From assembly GCF_055900595.2 (NCBI RefSeq), contig NZ_CM148325.1: a DNA stretch of 64,000 nt, one strand, 5' to 3'. Of this stretch, positions 15,709 to 37,960 are shown piece after piece. The position numbers and the translations under genes are program-made. Every line of letters starts with the position of its first letter. Positions within the stretch are counted from its first letter, which is position 1. The notes beneath the pieces are model-generated. The model saw only the letters and a program-made list of their open reading frames with translations. It made no database searches and was not told where the DNA came from.

Positions 15709-15736
15709 CAGAAATAACCACAAGAGGTGATAACCG

Positions 15737-16876: not shown

Positions 16877-16878
16877 CC

Positions 16879-17661: not shown

Positions 17662-17763
17662 CGGCTGACCCCGTCAGAAGGCGGCGTGCCGGGCGTTCCG
17701 GTTACGGTTTTCCGTTCCCCTTACACCCGGCACCCACCGCTTTTTTTTCTGAAGGAGCGATTT

Positions 17764-18739: not shown

Positions 18740-19281
18740 AGCTGCCGGTAAAACGTTATGCGGTGGCGGCCATTGTGGCGCTGGGCGTCTCCATGGCACC
18801 CGGTGAACTGAGAACCTCACGGGAAGCACAGATAAAAATCGCCACCCGGGAAGAGTGCCGGGCGACACCGTACCGTGATATTGCAGGAGTAATGACCGTG
18901 GGATGTGGTTCAACAGGGGGCGTGGAGAACCGGGTTTACGGAGAAAAGGAGGTGGCCCGCCGCTGGGTGAATGACCTGCGGCACGCGGAAAACTGTATCA
19001 ACCAGAACTTCAGCGGTGCCGCCATGCCCCAGTCCGCCTTTGAGGCGATGACCGACGCGGCGTTCAACGTCGGCTGTACCGGCCTGATGTGGTACCGGGA
19101 CAGGAGCGGCAACCGGCAGCGCACCACCATCTGGAAGCACGCACAGGCGCACCGCTGGGTGGCGATGTGCGGGAGACTGACCGATTTTGTCAACAGTGGC
19201 GGACGCCGCTCACAGGGGCTGGTTAACCGCCGGGAGGAGTTCAGACAGTGGTGTCTTCGCGACACGGGAGGCAGCACATGA
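18736..19281 (+). CDS. Endolysin with an N-terminal signal-anchor (SAR-type lysozyme)
   Basis: N-terminal TM (YAVAAIVALGVSMAPG) followed by a lysozyme-like motif (ECRATPYRDIAGVMTVGCGSTGG). Confidence 0.75.
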   Translation: MKLPVKRYAVAAIVALGVSMAPGELRTSREAQIKIATREECRATPYRDIAGVMTVGCGSTGGVENRVYGEKEVARRWVNDLRHAENCINQNFSGAAMPQSAFEAMTDAAFNVGCTGLMWYRDRSGNRQRTTIWKHAQAHRWVAMCGRLTDFVNSGGRRSQGLVNRREEFRQWCLRDTGGST

Positions 19282-19685
19282 GACCGGTTTACGCCGTGAT
19301 TGTTGCCCTCATGGTGACCGCCCTGACGGCAGTGGCCATGTGGCAGTCATACCGGCTGGGGCGTGCCGGTGAGGCACGTGACGCCGCAGAGCAGCAGCTG
19401 GGCGAATACAGCCGTGCGCTGCGTGAATCCTCCGCCGTTATCAGCGATGCCTCCGCCGTACTGCATGAGGTGATGACGCAGCGACAGCAAAGGGCACAGG
19501 AAGGAGAAGCCAGACGTGAACAGCTTCGCGAAATTACTGCGACGGATGAGTGCGCCCGCGCTCTTCCTGACCACCGTTTTACTGACCGGCTGCGCGAACA
19601 CACGGAACGCGCCACTGCCCGCGCCCTCCTTCCGGTTCATTCCGGCGGGACTGACGACGGGAACACGGCCCCCGCCCTTCCCTGA
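19278..19685 (+). CDS. i-spanin (Rz / LysB-like)
   Basis: ATG overlapping the endolysin stop; N-terminal TM plus a coiled-coil-like periplasmic region. Confidence 0.65.
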   Translation: MRPVYAVIVALMVTALTAVAMWQSYRLGRAGEARDAAEQQLGEYSRALRESSAVISDASAVLHEVMTQRQQRAQEGEARREQLREITATDECARALPDHRFTDRLREHTERATARALLPVHSGGTDDGNTAPALP

Positions 19686-19830
19686 ACACCCCACCTGGGG
19701 AAATATCGGGATATGGAGCGACAGCCTCCTGGATGCACTGGAAACCTGCAACGCAGACAAACAGGCCATTGAGGCGCTGGAGCGCCGGAGACTCAACCGA
19801 CAGAACGGAGGGGGACATGCTGAAAAGTAA
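19516..19830 (+). CDS. o-spanin lipoprotein (Rz1 / LysC-like), overlapping the i-spanin gene in another frame
   Basis: Lipobox LLTGC in the N-terminal region; proline-rich; overlaps the 3' end of the i-spanin gene. Confidence 0.6.
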   Translation: MNSFAKLLRRMSAPALFLTTVLLTGCANTRNAPLPAPSFRFIPAGLTTGTRPPPFPEHPTWGNIGIWSDSLLDALETCNADKQAIEALERRRLNRQNGGGHAEK

Positions 19831-20281
19831 ATCCCTGAGCACACACATGAGTACAGCGTGCCGGTGGTGCAGGGCCAACCCGGAAAAGTTCACCGTGTTC
19901 ATTGAACGTGGCGGGATAGAGACCACCGGCGAGACGCCGACGTTCGTGTACAACTACCGGCTCGTGATGTTCGTCATGGACTACACGGGCGACCTGGACG
20001 ACCTGACGCTGCCGCTGATTGTCTGGCTGGCAGAGAACCAGCCGCAGTTGCTGCTTAATCCTGAGCGCAACGGCGATATTCAGTTCACGGCGGCCATTAA
20101 CGACGACGACAGTGCGGACGTGCTTTTTGAGGTGCCGCTGCGCGAGCGCGTGCGCGTCACCCGCAGGGATGACGGCACCCTCACAACGGAACATCTGCCG
20201 GAGCCGAAATCGCGCATCCCGCAGGACGGCGACTGGTCGCACATTCTGGAGGATGTGACGTGGGAGGTGACCGGTGACTGA
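19817..20281 (+). CDS. R: Tail completion protein, P2 gpR family
   Basis: ATG 19817 with GGAGGGGG Shine-Dalgarno; position after the lysis cassette. Confidence 0.7.
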   Translation: MLKSKSLSTHMSTACRWCRANPEKFTVFIERGGIETTGETPTFVYNYRLVMFVMDYTGDLDDLTLPLIVWLAENQPQLLLNPERNGDIQFTAAINDDDSADVLFEVPLRERVRVTRRDDGTLTTEHLPEPKSRIPQDGDWSHILEDVTWEVTGD

Positions 20282-20915
20282 CAGGGCTTTCACTGAACTG
20301 GACCGCACAATGCGGACCATCAGTAGCGGACTTTCCCCGCAGGCACTGAGCCGGATTGCCGGGCAGCTTGCCAGAGAGCTTCGCCGCAGCCAGCAACAGC
20401 GCATGCGTGCACAGAAAGCGCCGGACGGTACACAGTGGGAGCCGCGCAGACGGCGCATCAGCCGCCTGCAGCAGCGTATCCGCTTCATCCGGAACAACGA
20501 AACCCGCACGCTGAAAAACTGGCATCACGACGTGAGCAGACACGGACGCACCATCACCGGCTGGGATGAGGATAAGGGAGGCCTGCGCACCTTCTACCGG
20601 GAGGATATCACCCGTTATATTGAAATCAGCACCCGCCGCATCAGCCGCAACGCCACAAAGACCGTACCGATGTTTGCGAAGCTGCGCACGGCACGCTACC
20701 TGAAAGCCAGAGGCGATGCGGGCGGTCTGACCGTCGGTTATGACGGCGTGGCGGCACGCATTGCCCGCGTTCACCAGTTCGGGGAGCGCGACCGGGTGGC
20801 CGCAGGGGTGTATACGGATTATCCGGCCCGTGAACTTCTTGGAATAACACCGGCAGATGAACGGCTGATTGCCGACAGGTTACTGAACCGCATTGCGGGA
20901 GAAATATCATCATGA
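20274..20915 (+). CDS. S: Virion morphogenesis / tail completion protein, P2 gpS family
   Basis: 213 aa at the position between R and V. Confidence 0.7.
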   Translation: MTDRAFTELDRTMRTISSGLSPQALSRIAGQLARELRRSQQQRMRAQKAPDGTQWEPRRRRISRLQQRIRFIRNNETRTLKNWHHDVSRHGRTITGWDEDKGGLRTFYREDITRYIEISTRRISRNATKTVPMFAKLRTARYLKARGDAGGLTVGYDGVAARIARVHQFGERDRVAAGVYTDYPARELLGITPADERLIADRLLNRIAGEISS

Positions 20916-21493
20916 ACGCGGAGCTTATGCGCCTTATCAGCAACATTATCAGAACCGGCGTGATTTTCGACGTGAACCCGCAGACCTGGGAGGTCCGGGT
21001 GCGCAGTGGCGGACTGGAGACAGGCTGGCTTCGCTGGAGCACCGCGCGGGCGGGCGCGTTCAGTGTCTGGGTGCCGCCAGCCACCGGTGAACAGGTGGCG
21101 TTCGTCTGTATCGGTGGTAATCCCGAAACCGCGATAATCATCGGCAGCCTCTGGAGCGATGATATCCCGGCACCGGGCAGCACACTGAAGGAAATCATCA
21201 TGACAGCACCGGACGGTGCGGTATTCCGCTACGATGCAGACGCCGGTGCACTGGAGGTTAAGGGGATTAAAACAGCCAGCATTCAGGCCGACACGCGCAT
21301 CACCCTGGACACGCCGGAGGTGGTGTGTACCCGCAAACTTATCACCGCCACCCTGGAGGTGCAGAACGGCGGCGAGATGCGCGGCAGCATATCCCACAGC
21401 GGCGGCAGCCTGACATCCAACGGTATCACCGTTCATACGCACACCCACGGTGGCGTCAGGACGGGCCCGGGCACCACGGGAGGCCCGCAATGA
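20912..21493 (+). CDS. V: Baseplate central spike, P2 gpV family
   Basis: 193 aa with a glycine-rich C-terminus (HTHTHGGVRTGPGTTGGP). Confidence 0.8.
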   Translation: MNAELMRLISNIIRTGVIFDVNPQTWEVRVRSGGLETGWLRWSTARAGAFSVWVPPATGEQVAFVCIGGNPETAIIIGSLWSDDIPAPGSTLKEIIMTAPDGAVFRYDADAGALEVKGIKTASIQADTRITLDTPEVVCTRKLITATLEVQNGGEMRGSISHSGGSLTSNGITVHTHTHGGVRTGPGTTGGPQ

Positions 21494-21840
21494 CCGCTGT
21501 TTACAGGGGGATGAACCCGCAGGGAACCGGCACGCTGAGCGACAGCGAACACCTGAAAAACAGCGTGCGGGATATCCTGACCACACCGCCAGGCAGCCGG
21601 GTGATGCGCCGCGAATACGGCAGCCTGTTACCGGACCTCATCGACGAGCCCATGAACGACACCACGCGTTTACAGTGCATGAGCGCCACGGTGACTGCGC
21701 TGGCGCGCCATGAACCCCGTATAGCACTGCAGAACGTCGATGTGAACTGGCGGGCTGGCGGACGCGCCGTGGTGACGTTATCCGGCATCATCACCGAAAC
21801 CATGCAGAACATCACATTCAGTATCACCATAAGGGAGTAA
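21490..21840 (+). CDS. W: Baseplate protein, P2 gpW family
   Basis: ATG 21490 overlapping the V stop; about 116 aa. Confidence 0.75.
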   Translation: MTAVYRGMNPQGTGTLSDSEHLKNSVRDILTTPPGSRVMRREYGSLLPDLIDEPMNDTTRLQCMSATVTALARHEPRIALQNVDVNWRAGGRAVVTLSGIITETMQNITFSITIRE

Positions 21841-21843
21841 ATC

Positions 21844-22740
21844 ATGCCTTCCGTTGACCTGTCACAGTTACCGGAACCGGCCATCATCGCGCAGCCGGAT
21901 TTTGAGTCCATCCTGGCAGACATTAAAACCATGATGGTGAGCTCCTTCCCGGAAGAATACCGCGCCGCCGTCACCCGTGCCCTTACTCTGGAATCCGAGC
22001 CATTGAACATCATTTCCCAGGCCATGGCCTTTCGTGAAATGCTGCTTCGCCAGCGCATCAATGAAGCCGCCCGCGCCTGCATGCTCAGCCACAGCCGGGG
22101 CAGTGACCTGGACAATCTGGCTGCCAACAACAACACCCGCCGCCTGGTCATTCATCCGGCCACTGATACCACGGAAGCAGTGATGGAAAGCGACACATCG
22201 CTGCGTCTGCGTGCCCAGTCAGCCTGGGACGGCCTGAGTGTGGCCGGACCGTCCGGCGCGTATGAGTATTTTGCCCGGAGCGCAAGCGGTCTTGTCCGTG
22301 ATGCGCGCGCCATCAGCCCGTCACCGGCCACAGTCACCGTCTCCATCCTGTCAGCAGACGGTGACGGCACCGCCGGTGAGGCGTTACTGAACACGGTGCG
22401 CACCGCCCTGAATGCCGAGAACGTGCGCCCGGTTGCCGACCGCCTGACTGTGCAGAGTGCTACCATCGTGAACTGGGAAATGGAAGCGAAGCTGTATTTT
22501 TATCCAGGGCCGGAGTCTGAACCCATGCTTGCGGCCGCTGACGCCGCTTTCCGTGCATGGCTGGCAGACCAGGGCCGTATCGGTCAGGATGTGGCCCTGT
22601 CAGCCATCACTGCAGCGCTGCATGTTCACGGTGTCCAGCGCGTTGAGGTCATAAAACCCACGCAGAACATCACCATCAGTGACACTCAGGCAGCCAGATG
22701 TACCACATTCAGCATCAGCGAAGGAGGACGCAATGAGTGA
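21844..22740 (+). CDS. J: Baseplate wedge protein, P2 gpJ family
   Basis: 298 aa following W. Confidence 0.8.
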   Translation: MPSVDLSQLPEPAIIAQPDFESILADIKTMMVSSFPEEYRAAVTRALTLESEPLNIISQAMAFREMLLRQRINEAARACMLSHSRGSDLDNLAANNNTRRLVIHPATDTTEAVMESDTSLRLRAQSAWDGLSVAGPSGAYEYFARSASGLVRDARAISPSPATVTVSILSADGDGTAGEALLNTVRTALNAENVRPVADRLTVQSATIVNWEMEAKLYFYPGPESEPMLAAADAAFRAWLADQGRIGQDVALSAITAALHVHGVQRVEVIKPTQNITISDTQAARCTTFSISEGGRNE

Positions 22741-23461
22741 CAGGAAAAAAACAGACAGCGCACAGCACAGTACATCACTGCTTCCACCGTCCGCAGGGCC
22801 ATTCATGCGCGCCACAGAGGCGACAGGAGTACGCATCAGTACCATACCGGTGGACGCCGACACCCTGTGGTCGCCGGACCGCTGCCCTGCTCACCTCCTG
22901 CCCTACCTTGCATGGGCATGTTCCGTTGACCGCTGGGACCGCAACTGGCCGGAAGAGACCAGACGACAGGTGATTGGCCAGTCCTGGAAGGTACACCGCC
23001 AGAAAGGAACGGTCAGCGCACTGAGGGAAACAGCCGCAGCATTCGGTTATGAGATGACCATCAGTGAATGGTGGGAGCATGGAGGGCAGCCGGGCACCTT
23101 TACTGTGACCATCGGGGCAGACACTCAGGGCATCGGCCCTGAAACATGGCTGGAGATGGAGGATCTGCTCAATGATGCACGTCCGGTTTCACGTCATATG
23201 ACGGGGCTTTATGCCGCCCTGCGTTCTGGCGTGACGGTTTACTGCGCTGCGGGAGCAGGCTGTGATGAGCTTGTAACCATTCACCAGAAAGCTCGCGCCT
23301 CCCTGGCGGGCCAGGTGACCATCATCGCAGCAGGAGACACACACACAACCGACAGTGTGACCGTACTGCCGGGGGTTCCGTCAGGTATGTACGGGGAGAT
23401 CTGTATCCGTACCGGCGCAGGTATATTCGTGAGTGAGATTGTGGAGGTTATCACCTTATGA
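22733..23461 (+). CDS. I: Baseplate protein, P2 gpI family
   Basis: ATG 22733 with AAGGAGG Shine-Dalgarno; overlaps the J stop. Confidence 0.75.
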   Translation: MSDRKKTDSAQHSTSLLPPSAGPFMRATEATGVRISTIPVDADTLWSPDRCPAHLLPYLAWACSVDRWDRNWPEETRRQVIGQSWKVHRQKGTVSALRETAAAFGYEMTISEWWEHGGQPGTFTVTIGADTQGIGPETWLEMEDLLNDARPVSRHMTGLYAALRSGVTVYCAAGAGCDELVTIHQKARASLAGQVTIIAAGDTHTTDSVTVLPGVPSGMYGEICIRTGAGIFVSEIVEVITL

Positions 23462-24573
23462 ACACCGATTTTTATTCCGTTCTGACGGATGCCGGGCTGA
23501 AAAAACTGGCGGCAGCCGCAGCATCAGGGAATCAGATGAAAATCACCCATATGGCTGTAGGCGACGGAAACGGAAAAGCCGTAACACCCGGCAGGGCCGA
23601 CACCAGGCTTGTCAGGGAAAAATACCGTGCGCCACTGAACAGTCTGGAAGAAGACACAGAGAGACCGGGGCATGTTATCGCAGAAATGGTGATACCTGAA
23701 AAACAGGGAGGGTGGTGGATCAGAGAATTCGGATTATTCGACGAAGACGGCGGAATGATTGTTACAGGCAAATTTCCTGACACATGGAAGCCTGCACCTG
23801 GTCAGGGTGGAGCACGACTGATATCAGTGAAAGTGGTTGTGGCAGTATCACATACAGAAAACATTGTGCTGAAAGTGGATCCTTCTGTTGTCATGGCAAC
23901 CCGGGAATGGGTGAACACAAAAGCAGAGCAGTTAAAGAAAGAGCTCAGACAACCTGATGCAACCACCAAAACAAAAGGCATTGTTCAGCTTAGCAGTGAC
24001 ATCAACAGCACCTCTGAAACGCAGGCTGCCACCCCCGGAGCGGTAAAAGCCGTGAATGATCGTGTGGACGGAAAACAGGACGCGGATCCCACGCTCACAT
24101 CTCTGTCCGGGAAAAATGCACAGCAACTGAGGCAGCTTCTGGGGCTGGGCACGCTTGCCACCCTGAACAGGGGCACCGGTTCAGGGAATGTGCCGGACAT
24201 GAGTCACTTTGCGAGTAAAAAAGCAGACTACGGTTACCAGTGTTTTCCTGGCGGCATAATGATCCAGTGGCTGCGGATCCCCTCAGACCACACAGAAAGA
24301 GCTGTCAGTCAGGAAGCCCGGGTGGCACTAAGCGGCGTGCGACTGTTTTCAGTGGAGGGTAACTGGAACGGTAATAACATGATTAAGACCCTGGCAAACT
24401 ACCAGTGGCCGAGAGTTTTCGGGGCAATTTATGCGACCGTTGCAACCAGGAATCACGGATCTGCATGGCGAGTATATCCGGTGTCCGCGAACAAGGATGT
24501 GCGTGTCGTATCCATTGCCTGGGCGGGAGAAGGTACAGATGACACTTATGTGGTTGGGGTGGGAAGAGTATGA
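23458..24573 (+). CDS. H: Tail fibre protein, gpH-like (371 aa)
   Basis: N-terminus typical of P2-family tail fibres (MNTDFYSVLTDAGLKKLAAA...); host-range-variable C-terminus. Confidence 0.8.
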   Translation: MNTDFYSVLTDAGLKKLAAAAASGNQMKITHMAVGDGNGKAVTPGRADTRLVREKYRAPLNSLEEDTERPGHVIAEMVIPEKQGGWWIREFGLFDEDGGMIVTGKFPDTWKPAPGQGGARLISVKVVVAVSHTENIVLKVDPSVVMATREWVNTKAEQLKKELRQPDATTKTKGIVQLSSDINSTSETQAATPGAVKAVNDRVDGKQDADPTLTSLSGKNAQQLRQLLGLGTLATLNRGTGSGNVPDMSHFASKKADYGYQCFPGGIMIQWLRIPSDHTERAVSQEARVALSGVRLFSVEGNWNGNNMIKTLANYQWPRVFGAIYATVATRNHGSAWRVYPVSANKDVRVVSIAWAGEGTDDTYVVGVGRV

Positions 24574-25016
24574 AAATGATGTGGTCGCCGTCTGTGGGCG
24601 GTTTTTTTGGTGAAGACAGCAGCCATATACCGGAAGATGCGGTGGAGGTTGATGAATCGATGTGGAGCAGGATGATGGAGGGACAACTTGAGGGAAAAAT
24701 TATCGTTAACGGCCCTGACGACCTGCCTGTTCTGGAAGAGCGTCCGGGACCGGGGCCAGAAGAATACCGGCATCAGGCTCGCCTTGAGCTTGCTGACCTT
24801 CGCCGACAGGGGCTGGAACACATAGAGTCGATGCGCTGGCGTGACAAAGCGGTCATGAACAGGCTGGGAGAAGAGGAGAAGCAGGAGTATAACGCCTGGC
24901 TTGACTGGCTCGACGCGCTTGACAGTACGGACATATCAGGGGCACCGGATGTGGTGTGGCCGGTGATGCCCGTCACGGTGGTTCCTGAACATCCTCAGAA
25001 AAAATTGCCGGAGTGA
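24570..25016 (+). CDS. G: Tail fibre assembly chaperone, gpG-like
   Basis: 148 aa; overlaps the H stop. Confidence 0.75.
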   Translation: MKMMWSPSVGGFFGEDSSHIPEDAVEVDESMWSRMMEGQLEGKIIVNGPDDLPVLEERPGPGPEEYRHQARLELADLRRQGLEHIESMRWRDKAVMNRLGEEEKQEYNAWLDWLDALDSTDISGAPDVVWPVMPVTVVPEHPQKKLPE

Positions 25017-25023
25017 ACAGCCT

Positions 25024-25049
25024 CCGGCCTGAGACTGCACTCAGGCCGG
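25024..25049. terminator. Strong hairpin between convergent G and U genes
   Basis: CCGGCCTGAG-ACTGCA-CTCAGGCCGG, a perfect 10-bp stem; no clear T-tract on either side. Confidence 0.45.
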
Positions 25050-25057
25050 AAATTCTG

Positions 25058-25504
25058 TTATCTGCCAGCATTGCGGATGATACCCGAAAGCATATCAGAC
25101 ACCGACGGCATCATTCGCTCCCGCAAATCCTCATCACAGCGTTCCATACTGACAGTGAACTCAATTTTTTTGGCCTTACCGTGGCGGTCAAGTTCGCTTC
25201 GCGTTGTGCGGACAGCCGTTATCACATACATGCCGTATATCTGCCCCACACCGTCAATCAGCGGCCATGGGCGGCCAGTGTAAGCCTGCGTCGTTAAAAG
25301 GCTGAGGGAAACCTCACCGCCGGTAATTTCGGGATAAAGCACACCGGACAACGTGATCTGGTCGTCACCCGCCCCGATATACTGCCAGCTGGCCGAACGA
25401 TTGATGCGTTCATTTTTAACGTGGCGCCAGGTTTTATTATGTTGCAGTTGTTGATGAGGCAGCGTGCGCAACTCAAAAACAAACATGCCGTAAATCATCA
25501 TCAT
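25058..25504 (-). CDS. U: Tail protein, P2 gpU family
   Basis: 148 aa, MMMIYGMFVFELRTLP...WQYIGAGDDQITLSGVLYPEITGG matches recalled gpU (MMM... start, LSGVLYPEITGG). Confidence 0.8.
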   Translation of the reverse strand: MMMIYGMFVFELRTLPHQQLQHNKTWRHVKNERINRSASWQYIGAGDDQITLSGVLYPEITGGEVSLSLLTTQAYTGRPWPLIDGVGQIYGMYVITAVRTTRSELDRHGKAKKIEFTVSMERCDEDLRERMMPSVSDMLSGIIRNAGR

Positions 25505-25515
25505 GCGAGGTACTC

Positions 25516-28500
25516 CTAATCTCTGTCACGGAAACTACCGACTGTCTGGCGGATACGGCGTTCCATTTCCGCACGGACGGCATCACCCACCATTTTTGCC
25601 AGTTCGCGCGGGTTTTGCGTGTGAACATCATGCAGGTGAATATGCAGTTCGCCAGTTAATCCCCATGGTGCCGGATCACTCTGACGCGGTCGGGGCGATG
25701 CGGGGGATATGGGCTGGCGCACAGCCTCAACCACCGGACGGGATGTTGCCGTTACGACGGGTGTCATTACCGGCGCAATATTGCCGGACACTACCGGTTT
25801 AATTACCGGGGAGAGCGTCGGTATAACATCGCCAGCCATAACCGGTTTGATCGCTGGCGAAATAACCGGAGCAACAGACTCAGCCATGACGGAACTGACA
25901 GGCTGAGGCGCTCTCACTATGCCAGCATCGATAACCAGCATGAGCTCGCGTACTGCCTCAAGGACAGGACGGGATATTGCCGCCATCACTGGTGTCATTA
26001 GCGGGGAGAACGTCGGCATGACATCGTGAGTCATAACCGGTTTGATCACCGGCGAAACCACCGGCGTAATATTACCGGACAGTACCGGACGGACGACCGG
26101 AGGAATAACCGGCACATTATTCACGGACACCACCGGCTTCACGACCGGCGACACGTTCGCCGTGGTGGATATCAGCGGCGAAACACTGACAGGCGGTGGC
26201 GCTGGCAGCGGTGGCAACGAAGGCACACTGACCGACGGCACCTGCGGCAGTCTGACAGGTGGCTCACTGACACTACCCGGTAACAGGGAAGCTGCGCGGT
26301 TAAAGCGTTCCTCCTTCCACTCACCACGAACGGCCAGCGCTTCCGGCAGGTTTTTAAAGATAATATCGCCGGGACCAGTGCGTTTTTTCGCCTGTTTCGC
26401 CTCATCCAGCAGGCCACCGGTGTTATCGACGATTTTATTCAGGCGACGCATGGTGCCGGTATTCTCCCCCGTCAGCGGAGCAGTTGCTGCAGGTGCAGGT
26501 ACTGGCGGCTTTTTGTCTTTGTCATTTTGCGGCGGATTAATGACATTAACATCCGCCAGGAGCATGGCGGCTTTCTCGTTCAGCAGCTCCTTCTGCTTCA
26601 GCTCTTCCGCCTTTTTCCGGGCGCGCTCAACCGCCGACGGAATCAGCCCGAGTTTTTCCAGCACCCGGGTTAATGAGTCAATCAGCAGCGTAACCGGACC
26701 GGTCACCAGATTGCTGATAAACTCCCCGACCTTCTGCCCGAACGTCCGCCCGGCTTCCGTGCACTTGTCCAGCTCATCCTTTGTTGTGCTTACCGGCGCG
26801 AACAAATCCACGAACCACTGCCACACACGCCCGATTGTCTGCCCGACATACTCAAACAATGGTCCCAGTGGTGCCACAGCCTCGCGCAGTGGCGTAAGCC
26901 CCTGCCACAGGCCGGACAAGAACCCGCCCACGACAGCCTTCAGCTGGTCCCAGTGCCGCCAGATAAGCACTGCCGCACCGACCAGTGTCGCCACCACAAG
27001 GCCCACCGGACTTAACAGAAAACCCAGCGCCCCGCCAAGTGCGCCCACCGCACCACTCACCATCCCCCACAGTGCGGGCAGACCTGACAGTCTGAGCGCC
27101 AGTATTCCGATACCGCGCCCCAGTGAAATCAGTGCGCCGCCAGGTGAAGTGAACGCAGCCAGCAGACCACCACGCAGCGCGCCAAGTCCCGCCTGCACAC
27201 CACGAAGCCGCCCCGCAACTACGCCCAGCAGTGCAGCAAACCGTCCGGCACCGGAGGTGATACCGACAAACAGCACGCGCCAGCCACCGATACCGCCCAG
27301 CGGACCACCGAGTACGCCGCGCAGCTGCGTCAGTAACGGCAGCGCACGACCGAGGCCGGATGTGCCGGTCAGCAGGGCAAACCCAAGACGCAGTTTTGCC
27401 AGCGGCCCCATCAACACACCAGTGGCAAGTGACAGCGCCCCCATGGCCGCAACCGCAGCCAGCAGTGCACCACCGGCAATCAGCAGTTGTTTTGTCAGTT
27501 CAGGGTGCGCCTGGGCCAGCGCGGTGACTTTCGCAATAACCCGGGTGAACGACTGCGTGACAGAACGCAGCGGCCCGTCAACGAGGTCAGCGACACGGAT
27601 ACGCAGCCCTTCCCATGCGCTGTTCAGTGATTTCAGGTCGCCGTCCAGGTTGTCCGCCATGATTCTGGCGTTTTCTTCCAGTTCGCCGTTCGCTGCCTGA
27701 ATCTCACGCGTCAGGCGCGGCAGGTTTTTTTCGCCTGCCTGTTCAACCAGGCTCATCAGGGAGACATACGCCTCCTGCCCGGCAATATCTGAAAAGAACG
27801 AGACTTTTGCCGCGTTACCGTATTTACGGGTGGCCTGATACAGCTCATACAGGATATCTTCCATCGGGCGCATGTTCCCGTAAGCATCCTGCGTTTCCAC
27901 GCCCAGCTGTTTCAGCGCCTTTGCTGCCGCTTTAGGCGGGTTCACAAGGCGGGACAGACTGGAGCGCAGCGCCGTACCAGCATCACTGCCACGTATCCCC
28001 ATCGACCCAAGCAACCCGGTCATGGCTGCGGTCTGTTCAAGAGACAGACCGAGTGAGGCGGCGACCGGTCCCGTATATTTCATCGTCTCACCAAGCCCGC
28101 GCAGGTCGGTATTGGTGCGGGTGAACGTTGCGGCCAGCGTGTCACCCACGCGGTTCATCTGGTCGGCAGACAACCCGAACTGCGTAAGGATATTTGAGCT
28201 GATATCGGCCGTCTGACCGAGGTCCATGCCGCTGGCCGTTGCCAGATTCAGCACGCCGGGAAGAGCCGCCTGTATCGCCTGCGGCGTGAACCCCGCCATG
28301 GCAAGGAACGCCTGACCGCTGGCAGCATCACCTGCGGTAAACTGCGTTTCGGAGCCGAGTTTAAGCGCCTGTTCGCGCAGCGCCTTAAACTGCGGACTGT
28401 TTTTGTCAATACGGGTCAGCGCCTGGACGCGCGACATCTCCTTACCAAAACTGACCGCCGGTTGCAGGAAACGCCCGGCCGCATAGCCACCTGCCGCTGC

Positions 28501-29058
28501 CGTGCCGACTGCCGTAAATCCACCCGCTTTCAGTTTTCCCGCCATCTCCTGAGCGCGGAAATATTGCTGGCGTGCCTGCGTGACGCGTGCCAGAGTCTGC
28601 CGTTCACGTTCCAGCTGTTCGTTGTATTGCTGTGTTCGCCGTATGGCCTGTTGAATGGTGTTGTCACTGCCGGAAAGCGCAATACCGTGACGCCGCAGCT
28701 CACCACCCAGTTCGCGCATTCGCTGAACTTCACGCGCACGGACCTCATTGAGACGCTCAAGTTTGAGGCTCAAATCGTTCATCAGCTTTTTCTGTTTGTC
28801 AGACAGCACGGTTCCGGCGCGCTGAATTTGCTGAAGTGCGCTTAACTGGCGTTGTGCCCGGGCAATGCCGTTTCCGGCCTTGTTTGCAGCCTCGCGGGCG
28901 CGATCAAATGAACGGGCGTGGCGTTCCAGGTTTTTGATCGCACCCTGCGTTCTCTGTATGGAGTCGCCAAGCTGGCCCATCATGCGACGGGCGTTTTCGG
29001 TGGGACGGGTCAGCCTGTCAACAGCGCTGAAGGCGACCCGTATATCAAGCGTTTTCAT
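25516..29058 (-). CDS. T: Tail tape measure protein, gpT-like (about 1180 aa from ATG 29056-29058; ORF track starts at GTG 29094)
   Basis: Very long helical protein with glycine-rich TM-like middle; an unusual Pro/Val-rich internally duplicated region near the C-terminus (DNA about 25700-26300). Confidence 0.85.
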   Translation of the reverse strand: MKTLDIRVAFSAVDRLTRPTENARRMMGQLGDSIQRTQGAIKNLERHARSFDRAREAANKAGNGIARAQRQLSALQQIQRAGTVLSDKQKKLMNDLSLKLERLNEVRAREVQRMRELGGELRRHGIALSGSDNTIQQAIRRTQQYNEQLERERQTLARVTQARQQYFRAQEMAGKLKAGGFTAVGTAAAGGYAAGRFLQPAVSFGKEMSRVQALTRIDKNSPQFKALREQALKLGSETQFTAGDAASGQAFLAMAGFTPQAIQAALPGVLNLATASGMDLGQTADISSNILTQFGLSADQMNRVGDTLAATFTRTNTDLRGLGETMKYTGPVAASLGLSLEQTAAMTGLLGSMGIRGSDAGTALRSSLSRLVNPPKAAAKALKQLGVETQDAYGNMRPMEDILYELYQATRKYGNAAKVSFFSDIAGQEAYVSLMSLVEQAGEKNLPRLTREIQAANGELEENARIMADNLDGDLKSLNSAWEGLRIRVADLVDGPLRSVTQSFTRVIAKVTALAQAHPELTKQLLIAGGALLAAVAAMGALSLATGVLMGPLAKLRLGFALLTGTSGLGRALPLLTQLRGVLGGPLGGIGGWRVLFVGITSGAGRFAALLGVVAGRLRGVQAGLGALRGGLLAAFTSPGGALISLGRGIGILALRLSGLPALWGMVSGAVGALGGALGFLLSPVGLVVATLVGAAVLIWRHWDQLKAVVGGFLSGLWQGLTPLREAVAPLGPLFEYVGQTIGRVWQWFVDLFAPVSTTKDELDKCTEAGRTFGQKVGEFISNLVTGPVTLLIDSLTRVLEKLGLIPSAVERARKKAEELKQKELLNEKAAMLLADVNVINPPQNDKDKKPPVPAPAATAPLTGENTGTMRRLNKIVDNTGGLLDEAKQAKKRTGPGDIIFKNLPEALAVRGEWKEERFNRAASLLPGSVSEPPVRLPQVPSVSVPSLPPLPAPPPVSVSPLISTTANVSPVVKPVVSVNNVPVIPPVVRPVLSGNITPVVSPVIKPVMTHDVMPTFSPLMTPVMAAISRPVLEAVRELMLVIDAGIVRAPQPVSSVMAESVAPVISPAIKPVMAGDVIPTLSPVIKPVVSGNIAPVMTPVVTATSRPVVEAVRQPISPASPRPRQSDPAPWGLTGELHIHLHDVHTQNPRELAKMVGDAVRAEMERRIRQTVGSFRDRD

Positions 29059-29571
29059 GCTCTGCGTTCCCGCTGCGAAGGGCCGCCCGCTCACGCCAGG
29101 CGACCACCTCGCCGGGATCCATCAGGAAGATTTCAGCGGGAGACCAGTTGAAAATAACGGCGATATCCGCCACAAAGTCTTCAATATGCTCAAAGGGCAC
29201 GACGGTTATCAGCCTGCCGTCGCCGCCACGCTCTTCCCGCCAGAGTCCTGACCGGCCAAAAAATTAACCGCCACCCCGCACAGCTGAATAAAATCAGCGG
29301 ACCCCATGCGCTTAAGCAGAACCTCGTCCAGTCGCGGCGAAGTGACGCGCGGGAGTAACTCAAACATCGCGTCCGTTTTCATGTTCAGCACGTCAAGCAG
29401 TGACAGCCCGCGCAGTGAACCGGCCTGCTGTACAGCAGGCGTGATTTCCACATACGTGATTTTTTTGTTACCGAGCACAAGGGGCGTTTTCAGCGTCACG
29501 CCGCGCTCACTGGTCACGTCCGCCGCATCAGCACCGTCAGTAACAGGGGCAACAACCGGATTTTCTTTCAT
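29045..29571 (-). CDS. E: Tail assembly chaperone gpE, with predicted -1 frameshift extension E+E'
   Basis: E ORF 29209..29571. Slippery T TTT TTG on the minus strand at 29257-29263 inside codons N-F-L; the -1 frame stays open to a TGA at 29045-29047, overlapping the start of T, as in P2 E/E'. Confidence 0.7.
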
Positions 29572-29621
29572 GAATAAAACCTCAAATCAGGGGGCGACGC
29601 CACGCGCCGCCGTGGAAAACA

Positions 29622-30140
29622 TTAACCACCAAGACCAATCGCCGAGCGCACGCGGTCCGGGAAGACGCTTTTGCCGTCCTTGCGTTCGATGTGGTTCAGT
29701 AAATCAATCTCCAGCACCGGACGGTCGTTAATGCTGAGTTTGTAGTAGGTACTTTTGACCGCATAGGTGTGAGACGTGACCTCACCCTGTTTGGCCTCCC
29801 CGGTATCAATTTCCGTCACGCGACCGCGAAGCTCAATCTCGTACAGGTCACTCTGTTCTTCATCGTTGTAGTACTCACCGACAAAGCGCAGCAGCGTACC
29901 GTCAATCGTTCCGCCGTACTTGAGGAACAGTTCGCGGGTCGGCCCGCCCATGGTGAAACTCGCATCCAGCGCGCCGTCATCCAGGCCAAGGTCGATATTT
30001 ACTGCACCGGCCATACCACCACCGCGATAGGCTTCCGTTTTACGGGTCAGTTTGGGGGCCGTGAAGCCGGTCACTCTGCCAATCTGGTTCACCCCGTCAG
30101 TAAACAGCGTGAACACCCTGAGATTTTTTGGTACGGCCAT
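29622..30140 (-). CDS. FII: Major tail tube protein, P2 gpFII family
   Basis: 172 aa between sheath and E. Confidence 0.8.
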   Translation of the reverse strand: MAVPKNLRVFTLFTDGVNQIGRVTGFTAPKLTRKTEAYRGGGMAGAVNIDLGLDDGALDASFTMGGPTRELFLKYGGTIDGTLLRFVGEYYNDEEQSDLYEIELRGRVTEIDTGEAKQGEVTSHTYAVKSTYYKLSINDRPVLEIDLLNHIERKDGKSVFPDRVRSAIGLGG

Positions 30141-31423
30141 TAAGCACCTCCAAGCGTCGCAAATGCAGGACCAAAGAATTCATCAGTAAACGTCTGGTAA
30201 AGTTCCATATCCTCAAGCGGCGGAACGGGCGTGTACTTGTAGCGGATACGCACGCGTCCCTGACGAAGTTCCGTGGTGCTGTTATCCACCACGTCATACC
30301 AGCACTCCGCACCAACGAGACGTCCTGACGTAACCAGCGCATCCAGTTTTGCGCGAATTGCGCTTAACACGTCTTTCACATTAGCAGGGGTCAGCGGGGC
30401 ATCAATCGTTTCAAACTGCGCTTCCGCAACAGAATCAGCCAGCACCTGAGCGGTTCGCGTGTACACCTCAAAGATATACGCCTTCGTTTCCGGCGTACGG
30501 TTGCCCCAGAAGCGGAAACCGTTACGGCGAATGATGGTGGTGATTTCCTTGTTGTTGAGATTGTTGGCATCGCTGTCTTCGGACTGAAGGGACCAGAACA
30601 CCGGGCTGGAAATACCCAGCACATTTCTTACCGGCACGTTGGACAGCGATTTATGCCAGCCCTGTTCGTGGTCAATACGTGCACGTAAACCGCAGGCGTA
30701 CGCCGCAGCCGGGAAGACCTCATTAGCGCCGGATTTCGGGTTATGGGCGATGAAGTCAGGCCAGAGCAGCATAAGTTCGCGCTCGTTAAATCTGGCGCGG
30801 TAGCTGATTGCATCAGCGGGCTTCTTGCAGTTGTGACAGCCCGCGTAGACAAATGCGCGAAGTTTTTCTGCAATTACACACAGGGATTTTGTGACAGCTT
30901 CAGTATCCAGTCCGGGCGCTGCGATGATGCGCGGACGGTAACCGATGGCATCATCCTGTTCAGCTATCAGAAGTGCATACATACCGGTATAATTACCGTC
31001 GTCATCCGTGCCACCAATGACATACTGGTCCTGCGTTTTGTGTGGGTATACAGGATGTGCATCTTCAGACTCATCAATACCAAAAAATGCCCTGTCTTCA
31101 GGATCCAGATGACCGAATGATGTAACTCCTGTATCCGGGGCGCCCTGAGAACTGGCATCAGGAACGCGCACCACAATCACCTTCGTGCTCACCTGGTCGG
31201 CGACAGCCTTAAGTGAACGGTACAGCGTGCCCTTTGTGCCGGTCTTACCCAGCACATCACTGACGCGGGTCAGCAGTATGGGTTTGTTCAGCGGGAACAG
31301 AGTTTCATCCGCGTCATCTGCCGTAGCCACAATACCAATAACACTGGAATCCACATCATTAATGGCGGTGGTAAGGCCGGTACTTTCCCTTACGCGCGCA
31401 CCATGAAAGCGTGTTTCACTCAT
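30140..31423 (-). CDS. FI: Tail sheath protein, P2 gpFI family
   Basis: From ATG 31421-31423 (MSETRFHGARV...); multiple segments match recalled P2 FI (FPLNKP, GTKGTL, QEQGWHKTLSNV, GFRFWGNRT, YTRTAQV, YTPVPPLE). Confidence 0.85.
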   Translation of the reverse strand: MSETRFHGARVRESTGLTTAINDVDSSVIGIVATADDADETLFPLNKPILLTRVSDVLGKTGTKGTLYRSLKAVADQVSTKVIVVRVPDASSQGAPDTGVTSFGHLDPEDRAFFGIDESEDAHPVYPHKTQDQYVIGGTDDDGNYTGMYALLIAEQDDAIGYRPRIIAAPGLDTEAVTKSLCVIAEKLRAFVYAGCHNCKKPADAISYRARFNERELMLLWPDFIAHNPKSGANEVFPAAAYACGLRARIDHEQGWHKSLSNVPVRNVLGISSPVFWSLQSEDSDANNLNNKEITTIIRRNGFRFWGNRTPETKAYIFEVYTRTAQVLADSVAEAQFETIDAPLTPANVKDVLSAIRAKLDALVTSGRLVGAECWYDVVDNSTTELRQGRVRIRYKYTPVPPLEDMELYQTFTDEFFGPAFATLGGA

Positions 31424-31583
31424 ATGTTTCACCCTTGTCTGGCTGGTTGATTTTGCGTAATCATTACCCACGATGCCGCCGGTATCATCTCCTGCCCGTT
31501 CTCACCGTTCGCTTACAACAAACAGCCGTTCACCACGGTCGCACGCCGTGAAAACATGACGGGACACACCACGAGGGCAGACC

Positions 31584-32675
31584 ATGACCGACCTGTTAAT
31601 CAACGTTCCGTCACCGGATATCGAAATCACCATCAACAACAACAGACTCCGTAACGTCACGGAGCGGCTCATGACGCTGTCACTGACCGACAACCGGGGC
31701 TTTGAGGCGGACCGCGTCACCCTGACCATTGACGACGCGGACGGGCAGCTTCAGCTGGCACAGCGCGGCGCACGCCTGAACGTGATGATTGGCTGGCGCG
31801 GGGAGGCGCTGGTTAACAAGGGTGTCTACATCGTTGATGAAGTGACGTGGGAAGGCCCGCCGGACAAACTGACCATCACCGCCAGCAGCGCCGATTTTCG
31901 CGAAGAGTTCAACGTGAAGCGTGAAGTCTCCTGGCACGACGTGACGGTAAAACAGGTTGTGTCAGCCATCGCGCACCGCTACGGCCTGAAAGCACAGATA
32001 AGCGATATCCTCATGGATATCGAAATTGACCACGCAGACCAGACCGAAGAGAGCGATATATCCTTCCTGACCCGCATGGCTGAAATGCTGGGTGCGATTG
32101 CCACCGTAAAAAACGGCAGCCTGTTATTCATTCTGCCGGGTGGCGGAACCGGGCCGGACGGAAGAGCCCTGCCTTCGTTCGCCATTACCCGCAGCAGCGG
32201 CGACAGTCACCGCTTTCGCATTGCTGACCGTGATGCGTATACGGGGGTCCGGGCGCACTGGCTCGATCTGAAGTTCGGGCAAAAGAAAAAAGTGAACGTG
32301 AAGCGACGCAGGGAAGCCGGGAAACAGAAACAGGAGAAGAGCAGCAGCCGGGAAGGTGATTACATGGAGGGCGCGGAAGGGAACGTCTACGTTCTGCGCA
32401 GGACTTACCAGAATGAAGAAACCGCACGACGTGCAGCAGCTGCAAAGTGGCAGGAACTACAGCGGGGCGCGGCATCATTCTCCATCACGCTGGCGCGCGG
32501 TCGTGCCGACCTGTACCCTGAAATGCACGGCAGGGTAACAGGTTTTAAAAGCGAGGTGGACAATCAGGACTGGATTATTGCCAGGGTGGAGCACAGCATA
32601 GATGAAAGCGGCTTCACCACACAACTGGAGCTGGAAGCGAAAATCCCCGAATGGATAGCAGATTCAGGCGGATAA
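31584..32675 (+). CDS. D: Late control / tail protein, P2 gpD family
   Basis: 363 aa at the D position, upstream of ogr. Confidence 0.8.
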   Translation: MTDLLINVPSPDIEITINNNRLRNVTERLMTLSLTDNRGFEADRVTLTIDDADGQLQLAQRGARLNVMIGWRGEALVNKGVYIVDEVTWEGPPDKLTITASSADFREEFNVKREVSWHDVTVKQVVSAIAHRYGLKAQISDILMDIEIDHADQTEESDISFLTRMAEMLGAIATVKNGSLLFILPGGGTGPDGRALPSFAITRSSGDSHRFRIADRDAYTGVRAHWLDLKFGQKKKVNVKRRREAGKQKQEKSSSREGDYMEGAEGNVYVLRRTYQNEETARRAAAAKWQELQRGAASFSITLARGRADLYPEMHGRVTGFKSEVDNQDWIIARVEHSIDESGFTTQLELEAKIPEWIADSGG

Positions 32676-32718
32676 AATTAAAATGAGCCATCTCCACTCA
32701 GCCAGATAAGGAGAAGCC

Positions 32719-32970
32719 ATGTTCCGTTGTCCCCTGTGCGGTGCATCCGCACGTATCCGCACCAGTCGCAATGAAAATGATTCAGGCACAGTTCGCCTGA
32801 AGTACTACCAGTGCAATAACCTCGAATGCGGGATCGGCTTTACCACACTGGAGGGTTTTAACAAATTCACATCAAAACGCGCCCCGTCGCCGCAGGGTAC
32901 AGAGCGGATACCGTGGGAAGATTTTCCGGGATCTCACAGGGGGAATGCTCAGATGAATCTTGATATTTAA
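32719..32970 (+). CDS. ogr: Late-gene transcriptional activator, Ogr/Delta zinc-finger family
   Basis: MFRCPLCGASARIRTSR...YYQCNNLECGIGFTTLE, a C2C2 zinc finger matching recalled P2 Ogr (MFHCPLC...HQCQNVNC). Confidence 0.85.
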   Translation: MFRCPLCGASARIRTSRNENDSGTVRLKYYQCNNLECGIGFTTLEGFNKFTSKRAPSPQGTERIPWEDFPGSHRGNAQMNLDI

Positions 32971-32974
32971 GAAC

Positions 32975-33990
32975 AATAATCAGGTTGAGAGGACATCATA
33001 AGGCAAGTAGATTAACGGCAGATACTTTCCCGCAACCACGGGCAAGTATTTAATTATCCATGATGAAATATGACCTAAATTGTTTTTTGCCCGCCGGAAA
33101 GCGGGCATTTTTTTATTCTTTTGTGGTTATGGGGTCATCAGGAACCACGTGCAGATTATATTTTTGTTTTTTTGGCGTTCCTCCGGCAGCAACGAGTTCA
33201 TCAATAAGACACTGACACGCCTGAACATCCCGGGCATGTCTTAGTTTCACCTTTATTGATTTAACCTTATCCTCACCGGAGGAGAAATGCAGTTCAATCT
33301 CAATATCGTTTCTTCGGAACAATCTCATACGCCCCCCTGAACATATCAGAAATGCTAGTATCGAAAAATGAGAAAACAGTTAGACAGGAGAAACATATTA
33401 ACACAAATCATTTATACCTATAGATGAAATTATAATTTCATTCATGAATATGATAGATAACTATATTGTGAACAAAATGAAAAATGGCTAAATTAAAAAT
33501 GGGCATGGAGGAATGCCTCGTAATCAGTAATACATGATCCATACTTCCTTGTTTTGCCCGCCGGAAAGCGGGCATTTTTTTGGCGGTTACCATCGCCTCA
33601 CCTTCCTGGTTCACACAAAGCAACCCTGATTTTCCATGAAAACTTCAGGGTTGAGCCAAAAGCACAAAGACAGTAGATTAACCAAGGGTACCCGCCACCT
33701 GCCAACAGGAACGGTATCCAGTACGTATTAATGACTGACAATTCACATTGCTGTTTTGCCCGCCAGAAGGTGGGCATTTTTTTGGCAGTTATCATGGACG
33801 CACCTTCATGACACATATTAAGCAGACCTGATTTTTCCATGAAAAATTCATGGTTGAGACAAAAGCACAAAAACAGTAGATTAACCACGGGTGCCTGCCA
33901 CCTGACAACAGGAAGGGGTGTCCATTATCCATGATATACAAACGAAAAGTCTTGTCTTTTGCCCGCCGTTGCGCGGGCTTTTTTTTTGCC
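32975..33990. repeat. Array of diverged att-like repeat units, each ending in a GC hairpin plus T-tract
   Basis: Hairpin GCCCGCC-loop-GCGGGC plus T-run at 33089-33115, 33556-33582, 33768-33792 and 33961-33987. Units share GGTTGAG...AGTAGATTAACC...CCACGGG...TTATCCATGAT; the first unit directly follows ogr. Confidence 0.6.
33113..33328 (-). CDS. Hypothetical small protein (71 aa)
   Basis: ORF track; G-rich Shine-Dalgarno-like sequence upstream; AT-rich promoter-like region with palindrome ATGAAATTATAATTTCAT upstream on the minus strand. Confidence 0.35.
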   Translation of the reverse strand: MRLFRRNDIEIELHFSSGEDKVKSIKVKLRHARDVQACQCLIDELVAAGGTPKKQKYNLHVVPDDPITTKE

Positions 33991-34016
33991 ACCCTCACCA
34001 GTGAGGGTACCATCAT

Positions 34017-34238
34017 TCAGAGGCGCGTAAGCCACCCGGCGTTAACATCCTGCCCGTCAACCCTGACCGCAGAGTCTGAACGGCAGGCACCGGAAGCAGT
34101 ACCAAAAACACCTCTGACAAGTTCCGCCACCTTCCCGATATCATCAGGCGCCACATTCCTCACCTCGACAGCGATCCGTGGCGTACCATCATCGTTAACA
34201 AGCGTGGCTTTAAGGCTGGTACGACGGGCAAATAACAT
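34017..34238 (-). CDS. Hypothetical small protein (73 aa from ATG 34236-34238; ORF track gives 95 aa)
   Basis: GGGAGGGGG Shine-Dalgarno 6 nt before the ATG; MLFARRTSLKATLVNDDGTPRIAVEVRNVAPDDIGKVAELVRGVFG...; no recognised family. Confidence 0.4.
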   Translation of the reverse strand: MLFARRTSLKATLVNDDGTPRIAVEVRNVAPDDIGKVAELVRGVFGTASGACRSDSAVRVDGQDVNAGWLTRL

Positions 34239-34395
34239 CAACACCCCCTCCCTTCGGTTCGTTGCACTGGCAGCACGATACCACCAGGAAAAAGAAAAGC
34301 CCACAACGTCAGGATTGCGGGCTTTTTTTCTTCAAAAATGGACACTACGTGGACACTGATTAAATAATCCTTTCTTAATCAGACTGTTAAAATGC

Positions 34396-34465: not shown

Positions 34466-36970
34466 ATGTCACAAACTATCGACCTGACCCTGGACGGCCT
34501 GTCCTGCGGTCACTGCGTTAAACGCGTGAAAGAAAGTCTCGAACAGCGCCCGGATGTTGAGCAGGCGGATGTGTCTATCACTGAAGCGCACGTTACCGGT
34601 ACTGCCAGTGCAGAACAGCTGATCGAAACCATCAAACAAGCGGGTTATGACGCATCTGTAAGCCACCCAAAGGCTAAACCGCTGGCGGAGTCATCAATCC
34701 CGTCGGAAGCACTGACAGCGGTTTCTGAGGCGCTTCCGGCAGCAAACGCCGATGACGATGACAGTCAGCAGTTGCTGCTGAGCGGCATGAGCTGCGCCAG
34801 CTGTGTTACCCGCGTACAAAATGCGCTGCAAAGCGTACCGGGCGTCACTCAGGCACGGGTAAACCTGGCGGAGCGTACTGCGCTGGTGATGGGCAGTGCC
34901 TCCCCACAAGATTTAGTGCAGGCAGTGGAAAAAGCGGGCTACGGCGCGGAAGCGATTGAAGATGACGCTAAACGCCGCGAGCGCCAGCAGGAAACCGCCG
35001 TCGCTACCATGAAGCGCTTCCGCTGGCAGGCAATTGTCGCTCTGGCGGTAGGTATCCCGGTGATGGTCTGGGGGATGATCGGCGATAACATGATGGTCAC
35101 CGCCGACAACCGCAGTCTGTGGTTAGTTATCGGCCTGATAACGCTGGCGGTAATGGTTTTCGCCGGCGGGCATTTTTACCGTAGCGCATGGAAAAGCCTG
35201 CTGAACGGTGCGGCGACAATGGATACGCTGGTGGCGCTGGGTACTGGCGTGGCGTGGCTCTATTCAATGAGCGTCAACCTGTGGCCGCAGTGGTTCCCGA
35301 TGGAAGCGCGACATCTTTATTACGAAGCCAGTGCGATGATTATCGGTCTGATTAATCTCGGTCATATGCTGGAAGCGCGCGCACGTCAGCGTTCTTCAAA
35401 GGCGCTGGAGAAATTACTCGATTTAACCCCGCCGACGGCGCGCCTGGTCACTGACGAAGGTGAAAAAAGCGTGCCGCTGGCAGATGTTCAGCCTGGTATG
35501 TTACTACGCCTGACGACCGGCGATCGCGTACCGGTAGATGGTGAAATTACCCAGGGCGAAGCGTGGCTGGATGAAGCAATGCTGACGGGCGAACCTATTC
35601 CGCAGCAAAAAGGCGAAGGCGATAGCGTTCATGCAGGTACCGTGGTGCAGGACGGTAGCGTGCTGTTTCGTGCCAGTGCGGTTGGCAGCCATACTACGCT
35701 GTCACGGATCATTCGTATGGTGCGCCAGGCCCAGAGCAGTAAACCGGAAATCGGCCAGTTGGCGGATAAAATCTCTGCCGTATTTGTGCCGGTAGTGGTG
35801 GTGATTGCGCTGGTCAGTGCGGCAATCTGGTACTTCTTTGGTCCGGCACCGCAAATTGTTTATACCCTGGTGATTGCCACTACGGTACTGATTATCGCCT
35901 GCCCGTGTGCGCTGGGGCTGGCAACGCCAATGTCGATTATTTCCGGCGTCGGGCGTGCGGCTGAATTTGGCGTGCTGGTGCGGGACGCCGACGCGCTGCA
36001 GCGCGCCAGTACGCTCGACACCGTAGTGTTCGATAAAACCGGGACGCTGACCGAAGGGAAGCCGCAGGTTGTCGCAGTAAAAACATTTGCTGATGTTGAT
36101 GAAGCGCAAGCATTGCGTCTGGCGGCGGCACTGGAACAAGGTTCCAGCCATCCGCTGGCACGGGCGATCCTCGATAAAGCAGGCGATATGCAGCTGCCGC
36201 AGGTCAACAGCTTCCGTACATTGCGTGGGCTGGGCGTGAGCGGTGAAGCAGAAGGTCATGCGTTATTGCTGGGTAATCAGGCGTTGTTAAATGACCAGCA
36301 AGTCGATACTAAAGCGATTGAAGCAGATATTTCAGCCCAGGCATCGCAAGGGGCAACGCCTGTGCTGCTGGCGGTTGACGGGAAAGCGGTGGCCTTGCTG
36401 GCGGTGCGCGATCCGTTGCGTAACGATAGTGTGGCGGCACTGCAACGTCTGCATAAAGCGGGATATCGTCTGGTGATGCTAACCGGGGATAACCCGACCA
36501 CCGCCAATGCGATCGCCAAAGAAGCAGGGATTGATGAGGTGATAGCCGGCGTGCTGCCAGACGGTAAAGCCGAAGCGATCAAACGTCTGCAAAGTGAAGG
36601 ACGTCAGGTGGCAATGGTGGGCGACGGCATTAACGACGCGCCAGCGCTGGCTCAGGCGGATGTCGGTATTGCTATGGGTGGCGGCAGCGATGTTGCCATT
36701 GAAACCGCGGCGATTACCCTGATGCGCCATAGCCTGATGGGTGTTGCGGATGCGCTCGCAATTTCCCGCGCAACGCTGCGCAACATGAAGCAGAACCTGC
36801 TCGGTGCGTTTATCTACAACAGCATTGGTATTCCGGTCGCCGCCGGTATTTTGTGGCCGTTCACGGGAACACTGCTTAACCCGGTGGTTGCCGGAGCGGC
36901 AATGGCGCTCTCGTCGATTACCGTAGTGAGTAACGCCAACCGGTTGCTGCGGTTTAAACCGAAGGAATAA
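34466..36970 (+). CDS. copA: Cu(I)-translocating P-type ATPase
   Basis: 834 aa; two N-terminal GLSCGHC / GMSCASC metal-binding motifs, CPC in the TM domain, DKTGTLT phosphorylation motif. Confidence 0.95.
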
Positions 36971-37165
36971 GTATGTCATTGCGGATGCGCTGCTTTAGGG
37001 TGGCGCATCTGGCATCGACGCATGCCTGCCGGATGCGGCGATGTTTTGGCCTTACGCGACCTTTTTGCACGTTTTCCCCGGCGTGCCAAATATTTAATCC
37101 GTCCCAACTCCATTTGCGCCATCCCTCACCGCGCGCTAGCATGATATTTCACAAAGGGAGGTCGT

Positions 37166-37960
37166 ATGGATCTGTTGTACCGGGTAAAAACGCTTTGGGC
37201 CGCGCTGTGCGGTAATCATTACACCTGGCCTGCTATCGATATCTCTCTTCCCGACCATCGCCATTTTCATCTAATCGGCAGTATTCATATGGGTAGCCAC
37301 GATATGGCTCCCCTGCCCACCCGTTTGCTCAAAAAGCTCAAAAACGCCGATGCGCTGATCGTCGAGGCGGATGTTTCTACCAGCGATACGCCTTTTGCCA
37401 ATTTGCCTGCCTGCGAGGCGCTGGAAGAGCGCATTAGCGAGGAGCAACTCCAAAACCTGCAGCACATTAGCCAGGAGATGGGCATTTCTCCGTCGCTCTT
37501 TTCTACCCAACCGCTGTGGCAAATCGCGATGGTTCTTCAGGCAACGCAAGCGCAAAAACTGGGGCTGCGGGCAGAATATGGTATCGATTACCAGCTATTG
37601 CAGGTGGCGAAGCAACAACATAAACCCGTGATTGAACTGGAAGGGGCAGAAAACCAGATTGCCATGTTGCTCCAGCTCCCTGACAAAGGACTGGCGCTGC
37701 TGGACGATACGCTGACCCACTGGCACACCAACGCTCGTTTGCTGCAACAAATGATGAGTTGGTGGCTGAATGCACCACCGCAAAATAATGAAATAACGCT
37801 GCCCAATACGTTCAGTCAGTCGCTGTACGATGTGTTGATGCATCAGCGAAATCTCGCCTGGCGGGACAAATTACGCGCTATGCCGCCGGGGCGCTATGTG
37901 GTCGCGGTCGGTGCACTACACCTGTATGGAGAAGGGAATTTGCCACAAATGTTGCGCTAA
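37166..37960 (+). CDS. ybaP: TraB-family protein YbaP
   Basis: 264 aa; conserved position next to copA and ybaK. Confidence 0.8.
   Translation: MDLLYRVKTLWAALCGNHYTWPAIDISLPDHRHFHLIGSIHMGSHDMAPLPTRLLKKLKNADALIVEADVSTSDTPFANLPACEALEERISEEQLQNLQHISQEMGISPSLFSTQPLWQIAMVLQATQAQKLGLRAEYGIDYQLLQVAKQQHKPVIELEGAENQIAMLLQLPDKGLALLDDTLTHWHTNARLLQQMMSWWLNAPPQNNEITLPNTFSQSLYDVLMHQRNLAWRDKLRAMPPGRYVVAVGALHLYGEGNLPQMLR

Follow-up and report, generated by a model that had tools for sequence, protein, structure and literature searches.

The gene ybaQ has been described as encoding a conserved antitoxin that is also the repressor of a clade-specific toxin gene, higB-1, and it is essential in those B2 and F strains in which higB-1 occurs (Rousset et al., bioRxiv 10.1101/2020.05.25.114553). 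According to the same study, higB-1 is absent from K-12 and from most phylogroups, and in phylogroup D higB-1 and ybaQ have both been lost. YbaQ of K-12 is classified by RASTA-Bacteria as a solitary antitoxin (PMC2374986). The presence/absence polymorphism at this locus is therefore already published; what we describe here is a further, independent null allele, a defined deletion scar, located between copA and ybaP in a 64-kb window (the whole stretch of DNA that was analyzed, 64,000 nucleotides).

A sequence-only reading of the window had noted that only about 195 bp separate copA from ybaP, and the coordinates of the two open reading frames, the first of which ends at 36970 and the second of which begins at 37166, bear this out: the spacer spans positions 36971..37165 and is exactly 195 bp long (Table 1). 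The gene names are taken from the RefSeq annotation of NZ_CP098223.1, a 99.9%-identical E. coli record, and from that of K-12; the product of ybaP matches the Pfam model TraB_PrgY_gumN (PF01963, E=1.7e-43), and ybaK and then ushA lie downstream of it. The same reading placed a small helix-turn-helix gene, ybaQ, in the ybaP-copA gap of K-12, and took the short spacer to mean either that this strain had lost the gene or, if the K-12 interval was also about 200 bp long and without a gene, that the arrangement was normal. The placement of ybaQ was correct: the copA-ybaP interval of K-12 MG1655 is 794 bp long and contains ybaQ, as seen both in its annotation and in its Pfam HTH_3 domain, together with three REP/BIME units, so the second option does not hold. 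An even longer spacer of 869 bp is found in AVS0970, where ybaQ is accompanied by a RelE/ParE (HigB-like) toxin gene. The window spacer was aligned with four other alleles using MAFFT and then pairwise with K-12.

Table 1. Positions of the copA-ybaP spacer features and of the flanking genes in the window.
Feature	Position	Strand	Description
copA (copper-exporting P-type ATPase)	34466..36970	+	Left border of the spacer; 834-aa ORF
Stem-loop, 13 bp, directly after the copA stop codon	36982..37011	+	RNA fold; sequence also in K-12
REP half-site GCCGGATGCGGCG	37028..37040	+	Exact match; 13 nt
Remnant of the ybaQ 3' end	37052..37107	-	56 nt; stop codon and approximately the last 22 codons, with a frameshift and an internal deletion
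Deletion junction, microhomology CCAA	37104..37107	.	Alignment with K-12 and toxin-antitoxin-bearing alleles
ybaP upstream segment, 62 bp	37104..37165	+	Conserved in all four alleles of the locus
ybaP (TraB/GumN family)	37166..37960	+	Right border of the spacer; 264-aa ORF; RefSeq annotation of relatives

The 195-bp spacer is very probably a double deletion scar that removed ybaQ. The most telling feature is a decayed piece of the ybaQ 3' end, the stop codon of which is read as TTA on the plus strand at position 37052. Compared with K-12 ybaQ, this piece carries four substitutions, a 1-bp deletion, and a deletion of 11-12 bp (MAFFT and pairwise alignment). It was matched to ybaQ by blastn with 88.6% identity over 44 nt (E=1.5e-9), and a somewhat longer segment of the K-12 spacer (positions 288-359) matches window positions 37024-37094 with E=7.6e-18. 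At the protein level, tblastn relates the remnant to YbaQ residues 89-111 with 61% identity. Because the remnant is short and degraded, and because the tblastn E-value is only 0.023, its assignment to ybaQ rests on nucleotide homology and synteny. Similarity to ybaQ at the place and on the strand predicted by synteny is what is expected of a gene remnant, and it supports the suggestion of the sequence-only reading that the strain has lost this gene. An intact ORF of approximately 113 aa with an Xre-type HTH_3 domain, which would qualify as a HigA-family antitoxin gene, is absent from the window, and so is a PF05015 ORF of approximately 100 aa adjoining an antitoxin gene, which would qualify as higB-1. 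Searches with blastn and tblastn within the 64 kb revealed no ybaQ or higB homolog elsewhere in the window; tblastn with HigB-1 against the whole 64-kb window returned nothing better than E=0.3, and no match in the spacer. Relocation of ybaQ to another place inside the window is ruled out by this homology search.

The junction itself is well defined. The ybaQ sequence (...GTCCCAA/TTC..., with the slash marking the breakpoint) is fused to the sequence upstream of ybaP (...TCTCCAA/CTCC...), and the microhomology shared by the two sides is 4 nt long given a K-12-like parent and 3 nt long given a toxin-bearing parent. The corresponding deletion amounts to 348 bp relative to the K-12 allele and to 682 bp relative to the allele with both genes. 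It removed the ybaQ promoter and approximately 91 codons, so that nothing is left of the HTH_3 domain (residues 16-70).

To place this junction in the E. coli population, we surveyed the locus in 5,426 complete E. coli genomes. The ybaQ gene is present in 4,834 of them (89%) and absent from approximately 11%. An adjacent RelE/ParE toxin gene, the product of which matches the Pfam model HigB-like_toxin (PF05015, E=2.7e-32), was found in 1,266 of the 4,834 genomes with ybaQ, including UTI89, ST131, and ABU 83972. In another 347-358 of the 5,426 genomes, an unrelated 428-bp filler without a gene occupies the site. The deletion junction of the window type was identified in 44 genomes (0.8%), among them SMS-3-5 and CE10, where a carrier is defined as a genome in which the query 37043-37130 is covered at 80% or more. 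We take SMS-3-5 and CE10 to belong to phylogroup F. These classes add up to 5,236 genomes (4,834 + 358 + 44), and approximately 190 of the 5,426 fall outside them. Both the remnant and the junction are identical in six other carriers that were fetched and aligned. At least four alleles can be distinguished at the locus: one with both genes, one with the orphan antitoxin, the filler, and the scar. Absence of ybaQ is not rare, and a scar at this locus is ordinary; the scar allele itself is already contained in long-public genomes, such as those of SMS-3-5 and CE10.

The 428-bp filler contains an unannotated dispersed repeat of 271 bp (positions 2106-2376 in the locus of strain 50579417), which is also found between aqpZ and lysO in a K-12 derivative (positions 1501-1771 of its locus). 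Essentially every E. coli genome has this repeat in 2-8 copies (median 4), and it shows a sub-threshold Rfam match to the TwoAYGGAY RNA (31.5 bits versus a gathering score of 43).

The sequence-only reading had also noticed a REP-like fragment in the spacer. This fragment was found (Table 1), and it is the remainder of a BIME after a deletion of 122 bp. A REP/BIME unit is an imperfect palindrome of approximately 35 nt, GCCGGATGCGGCG...CGCCTTATCCGGCCTAC, which generally occurs in inverted pairs; the window spacer has the 13-nt left arm without its partner, whereas K-12 and other carriers have complete units. The motif GCCGGATGCGGCG occurs in two copies in the window versus 0.23 expected by chance. 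In the six other aligned carriers, the spacers are 303-328 bp long, with one complete BIME and 3-6 CGGATGC heptamers; the 122-bp segment that the window lacks consists of one BIME and (CGGATGC)n. It is bordered by direct GCCGGATGCGGC repeats of 12 nt, and a repeat-mediated deletion would therefore explain the REP half-site. The tandem heptamer CGGATGC, which is REP-derived, varies from 3 to 6 copies among the copA-ybaP spacers of carriers and is absent from the window. Further REP/BIME-like sequences are located in the window at 43695-43880 (72-76% identical to the BIME units of the K-12 copA-ybaQ interval) and at 55224-55261 (94-97% identical to the same units).

Not one of the 5,426 complete E. 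coli genomes has the REP junction of the window (37013-37054), and no identical source genome is among them. Some genomes show approximately 100% identity to the window over the 14.6 kb that begin with copA; they match it in two pieces, as would be expected from the 122-bp difference, and in the one of them that we aligned, Z0117EC0005, the spacer is 317 bp long and includes the extra 122 bp. Since the junction is unique and a near-identical relative keeps the segment, the 122-bp loss is either a strain-specific deletion or an assembly collapse. In the latter case, the ybaQ deletion would still be real, but the true spacer would measure approximately 303-328 bp, the BIME and (CGGATGC)n having been collapsed, and 195 bp would in part be an artifact of assembly or sequencing. 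The direct repeats flanking the missing segment and the tandem heptamers, the number of which differs between strains, are features that would favor such a collapse. However, a real deletion between 12-nt direct repeats is also very plausible, heptamer number varies naturally between strains, and there are no Ns or ambiguity codes pointing to a gap; we therefore consider an artifact unlikely, although it deserves to be kept in mind. Two other explanations concern the ybaQ deletion, and we regard both as far less probable than the artifact. The site might be ancestrally empty, with ybaQ, alone or with higB-1, inserted only elsewhere in the species. Mobility is common among toxin-antitoxin modules, and the number of alleles at this locus would fit such a history; however, the stop codon and approximately 22 degraded codons of ybaQ are still in the right place and orientation, which indicates loss rather than primary absence and makes an ancestrally empty site highly improbable.

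Even more improbable is that the remnant has been recruited as a new small gene. A 48-aa ORF does exist on the minus strand (36976..37122), in which a new ATG in the ybaP upstream region precedes the C-terminal remnant of YbaQ, and its first residues resemble YbaQ residues 89-111. However, it has no Pfam match, none of the 44 carriers has it annotated, and the Shine-Dalgarno-like GAGGG directly abuts the ATG. Furthermore, substitutions within the ORF distinguish the carriers from one another, and in these genomes its downstream part extends into a BIME, which the window lacks; thus, there is no sign of constraint on the 48-aa ORF.

The double deletion remains the preferred explanation, and the following course of events would account for it. 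Illegitimate recombination at the 4-nt CCAA microhomology would have removed the ybaQ promoter and approximately the first 91 codons, and the toxin gene higB-1 would have been deleted in the same event if the ancestor carried one. The last 69 nt of ybaQ would have been left behind and would since have decayed to 56 nt. In a second event, a 122-bp deletion between the two direct GCCGGATGCGGC repeats would have eliminated the BIME and the heptamer repeat, leaving one REP half-site. The toxin partner of ybaQ was probably lost together with ybaQ. STLEFF_29, which has both higB-1 and ybaQ, shows no differences from the carrier SMS-3-5 in 1,100 nt of the ybaP region and 15 differences in the last 950 nt of copA; the identical ybaP region favors a toxin-bearing ancestor of the scar, with the junction itself compatible with either type of parent.

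Strong mosaicism is seen in the sequences flanking the scar among the carriers, with up to 54 of 950 nt differing in copA and up to 44 of 1,100 nt from ybaP onward, which implies that the scar is old, or was moved by homologous recombination, or both. The same null allele, down to its junction and remnant, is found on flanks that differ by up to approximately 5-6%, and the ybaP regions of STLEFF_29 and SMS-3-5 are identical; the scar could therefore spread between lineages. It is tempting, albeit speculative, to view it as an old allele spreading by short-tract homologous recombination and, together with the independent filler allele, as a sign that selection has repeatedly acted against the higB-1/ybaQ module or other regulatory roles of YbaQ; on balance, we consider this scenario rather unlikely.

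In the part of the window at approximately 35000-39300, which comprises the 3' half of copA, ybaP, ybaK, and ushA, the lineage is unusually divergent and the sequence is mosaic. Its copA sequence differs by 4-6% from those of K-12, B2-type strains, filler-type strains, and SMS-3-5, and the sequence from ybaP onward differs by approximately 3-4%; only 8 of the 5,426 genomes match this region with 99% identity or more. This divergence may mean that the lineage branches deeply or that the region is a hot spot of recombination.

What remains of the spacer most likely has no role other than that of copA 3' end and ybaP 5' region. Folding of the RNA from 36968-37062 gave -40.1 kcal/mol (z = -2.4), and K-12 also has the sequence of the stem-loop next to copA, of which a B2-type strain has a part; this stem-loop (36982-37011) is likely the 3'-end structure of copA. 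The only terminator-like match detected in a terminator scan was the hairpin of the REP half-site, which is weak (5 pairs). The 62 bp preceding ybaP are 100% identical to K-12 and 98% identical to the B2-type and filler alleles, and they contain the ybaP ribosome-binding site GGGAGG. By eye, TTGCGC-17-TAGCAT in this segment is a possible weak promoter; a promoter consensus scan of the spacer detected none at 9/12 or better. The covariance models of Rfam 15, searched against both strands of 36800-37300, produced no match with an E-value up to 1.

Upstream of copA, a P2-like prophage occupies positions 1..34394 of the window. The start of the window truncates an integrase-like ORF, after which come capsid and tail genes; gpD and ogr/Delta lie at the end next to copA. 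At the boundary (34395), homology with K-12 and the closest relatives sets in exactly with the -35 hexamer (CTTGACC) of the copA promoter, which is controlled by CueR and is intact. The glsA-ybaT-cueR genes are absent from the window; the nearest relative, Z0117EC0005, has glsA-ybaT at this place. The prophage-copA arrangement was found in only 5 of the 5,426 genomes.

Judging by its gene content, the copA-ybaP locus retains no toxin-antitoxin function. With no YbaQ regulator or antitoxin, nor a toxin gene, within the 64-kb window, YbaQ-dependent regulation is absent, and ybaQ cannot be essential here, unlike in the toxin-bearing B2 and F strains. The locus could be used as a minor marker of lineages and could illustrate how a toxin-antitoxin module decays, in line with the published picture; beyond annotation, it is of little importance.

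Compared with the ybaQ locus of K-12 MG1655 (b0483), the window has the same gene order (copA, ybaP, ybaK, ushA), the same stem-loop sequence, and the same 62 bp upstream of ybaP. On the other hand, K-12 has an intact ybaQ of 113 aa (342 nt, on the opposite strand, annotated as 'HigA family addiction module antitoxin') and three REP/BIME units in 794 bp, whereas the window has a dead remnant of 56 nt and one REP half-site in 195 bp. The scar lies at the chromosomal position that the higB-1/ybaQ type II module has in B2 and some F strains; the strains with this module (1,266 of 5,426) keep the HigB-like toxin gene (PF05015) and ybaQ, whereas the window has neither, and the module is the probable ancestral state of the window allele. 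The filler allele (e.g., in strain 50579417) resembles the window allele in that both genes are missing and approximately 60 bp upstream of ybaP are kept, but it differs in that the last copA codons and the interval are replaced by the unrelated 428 bp, with no ybaQ remnant. Judged by this structure, the filler allele and the scar are independent events, and the filler allele may be the loss reported for phylogroup D by Rousset et al.
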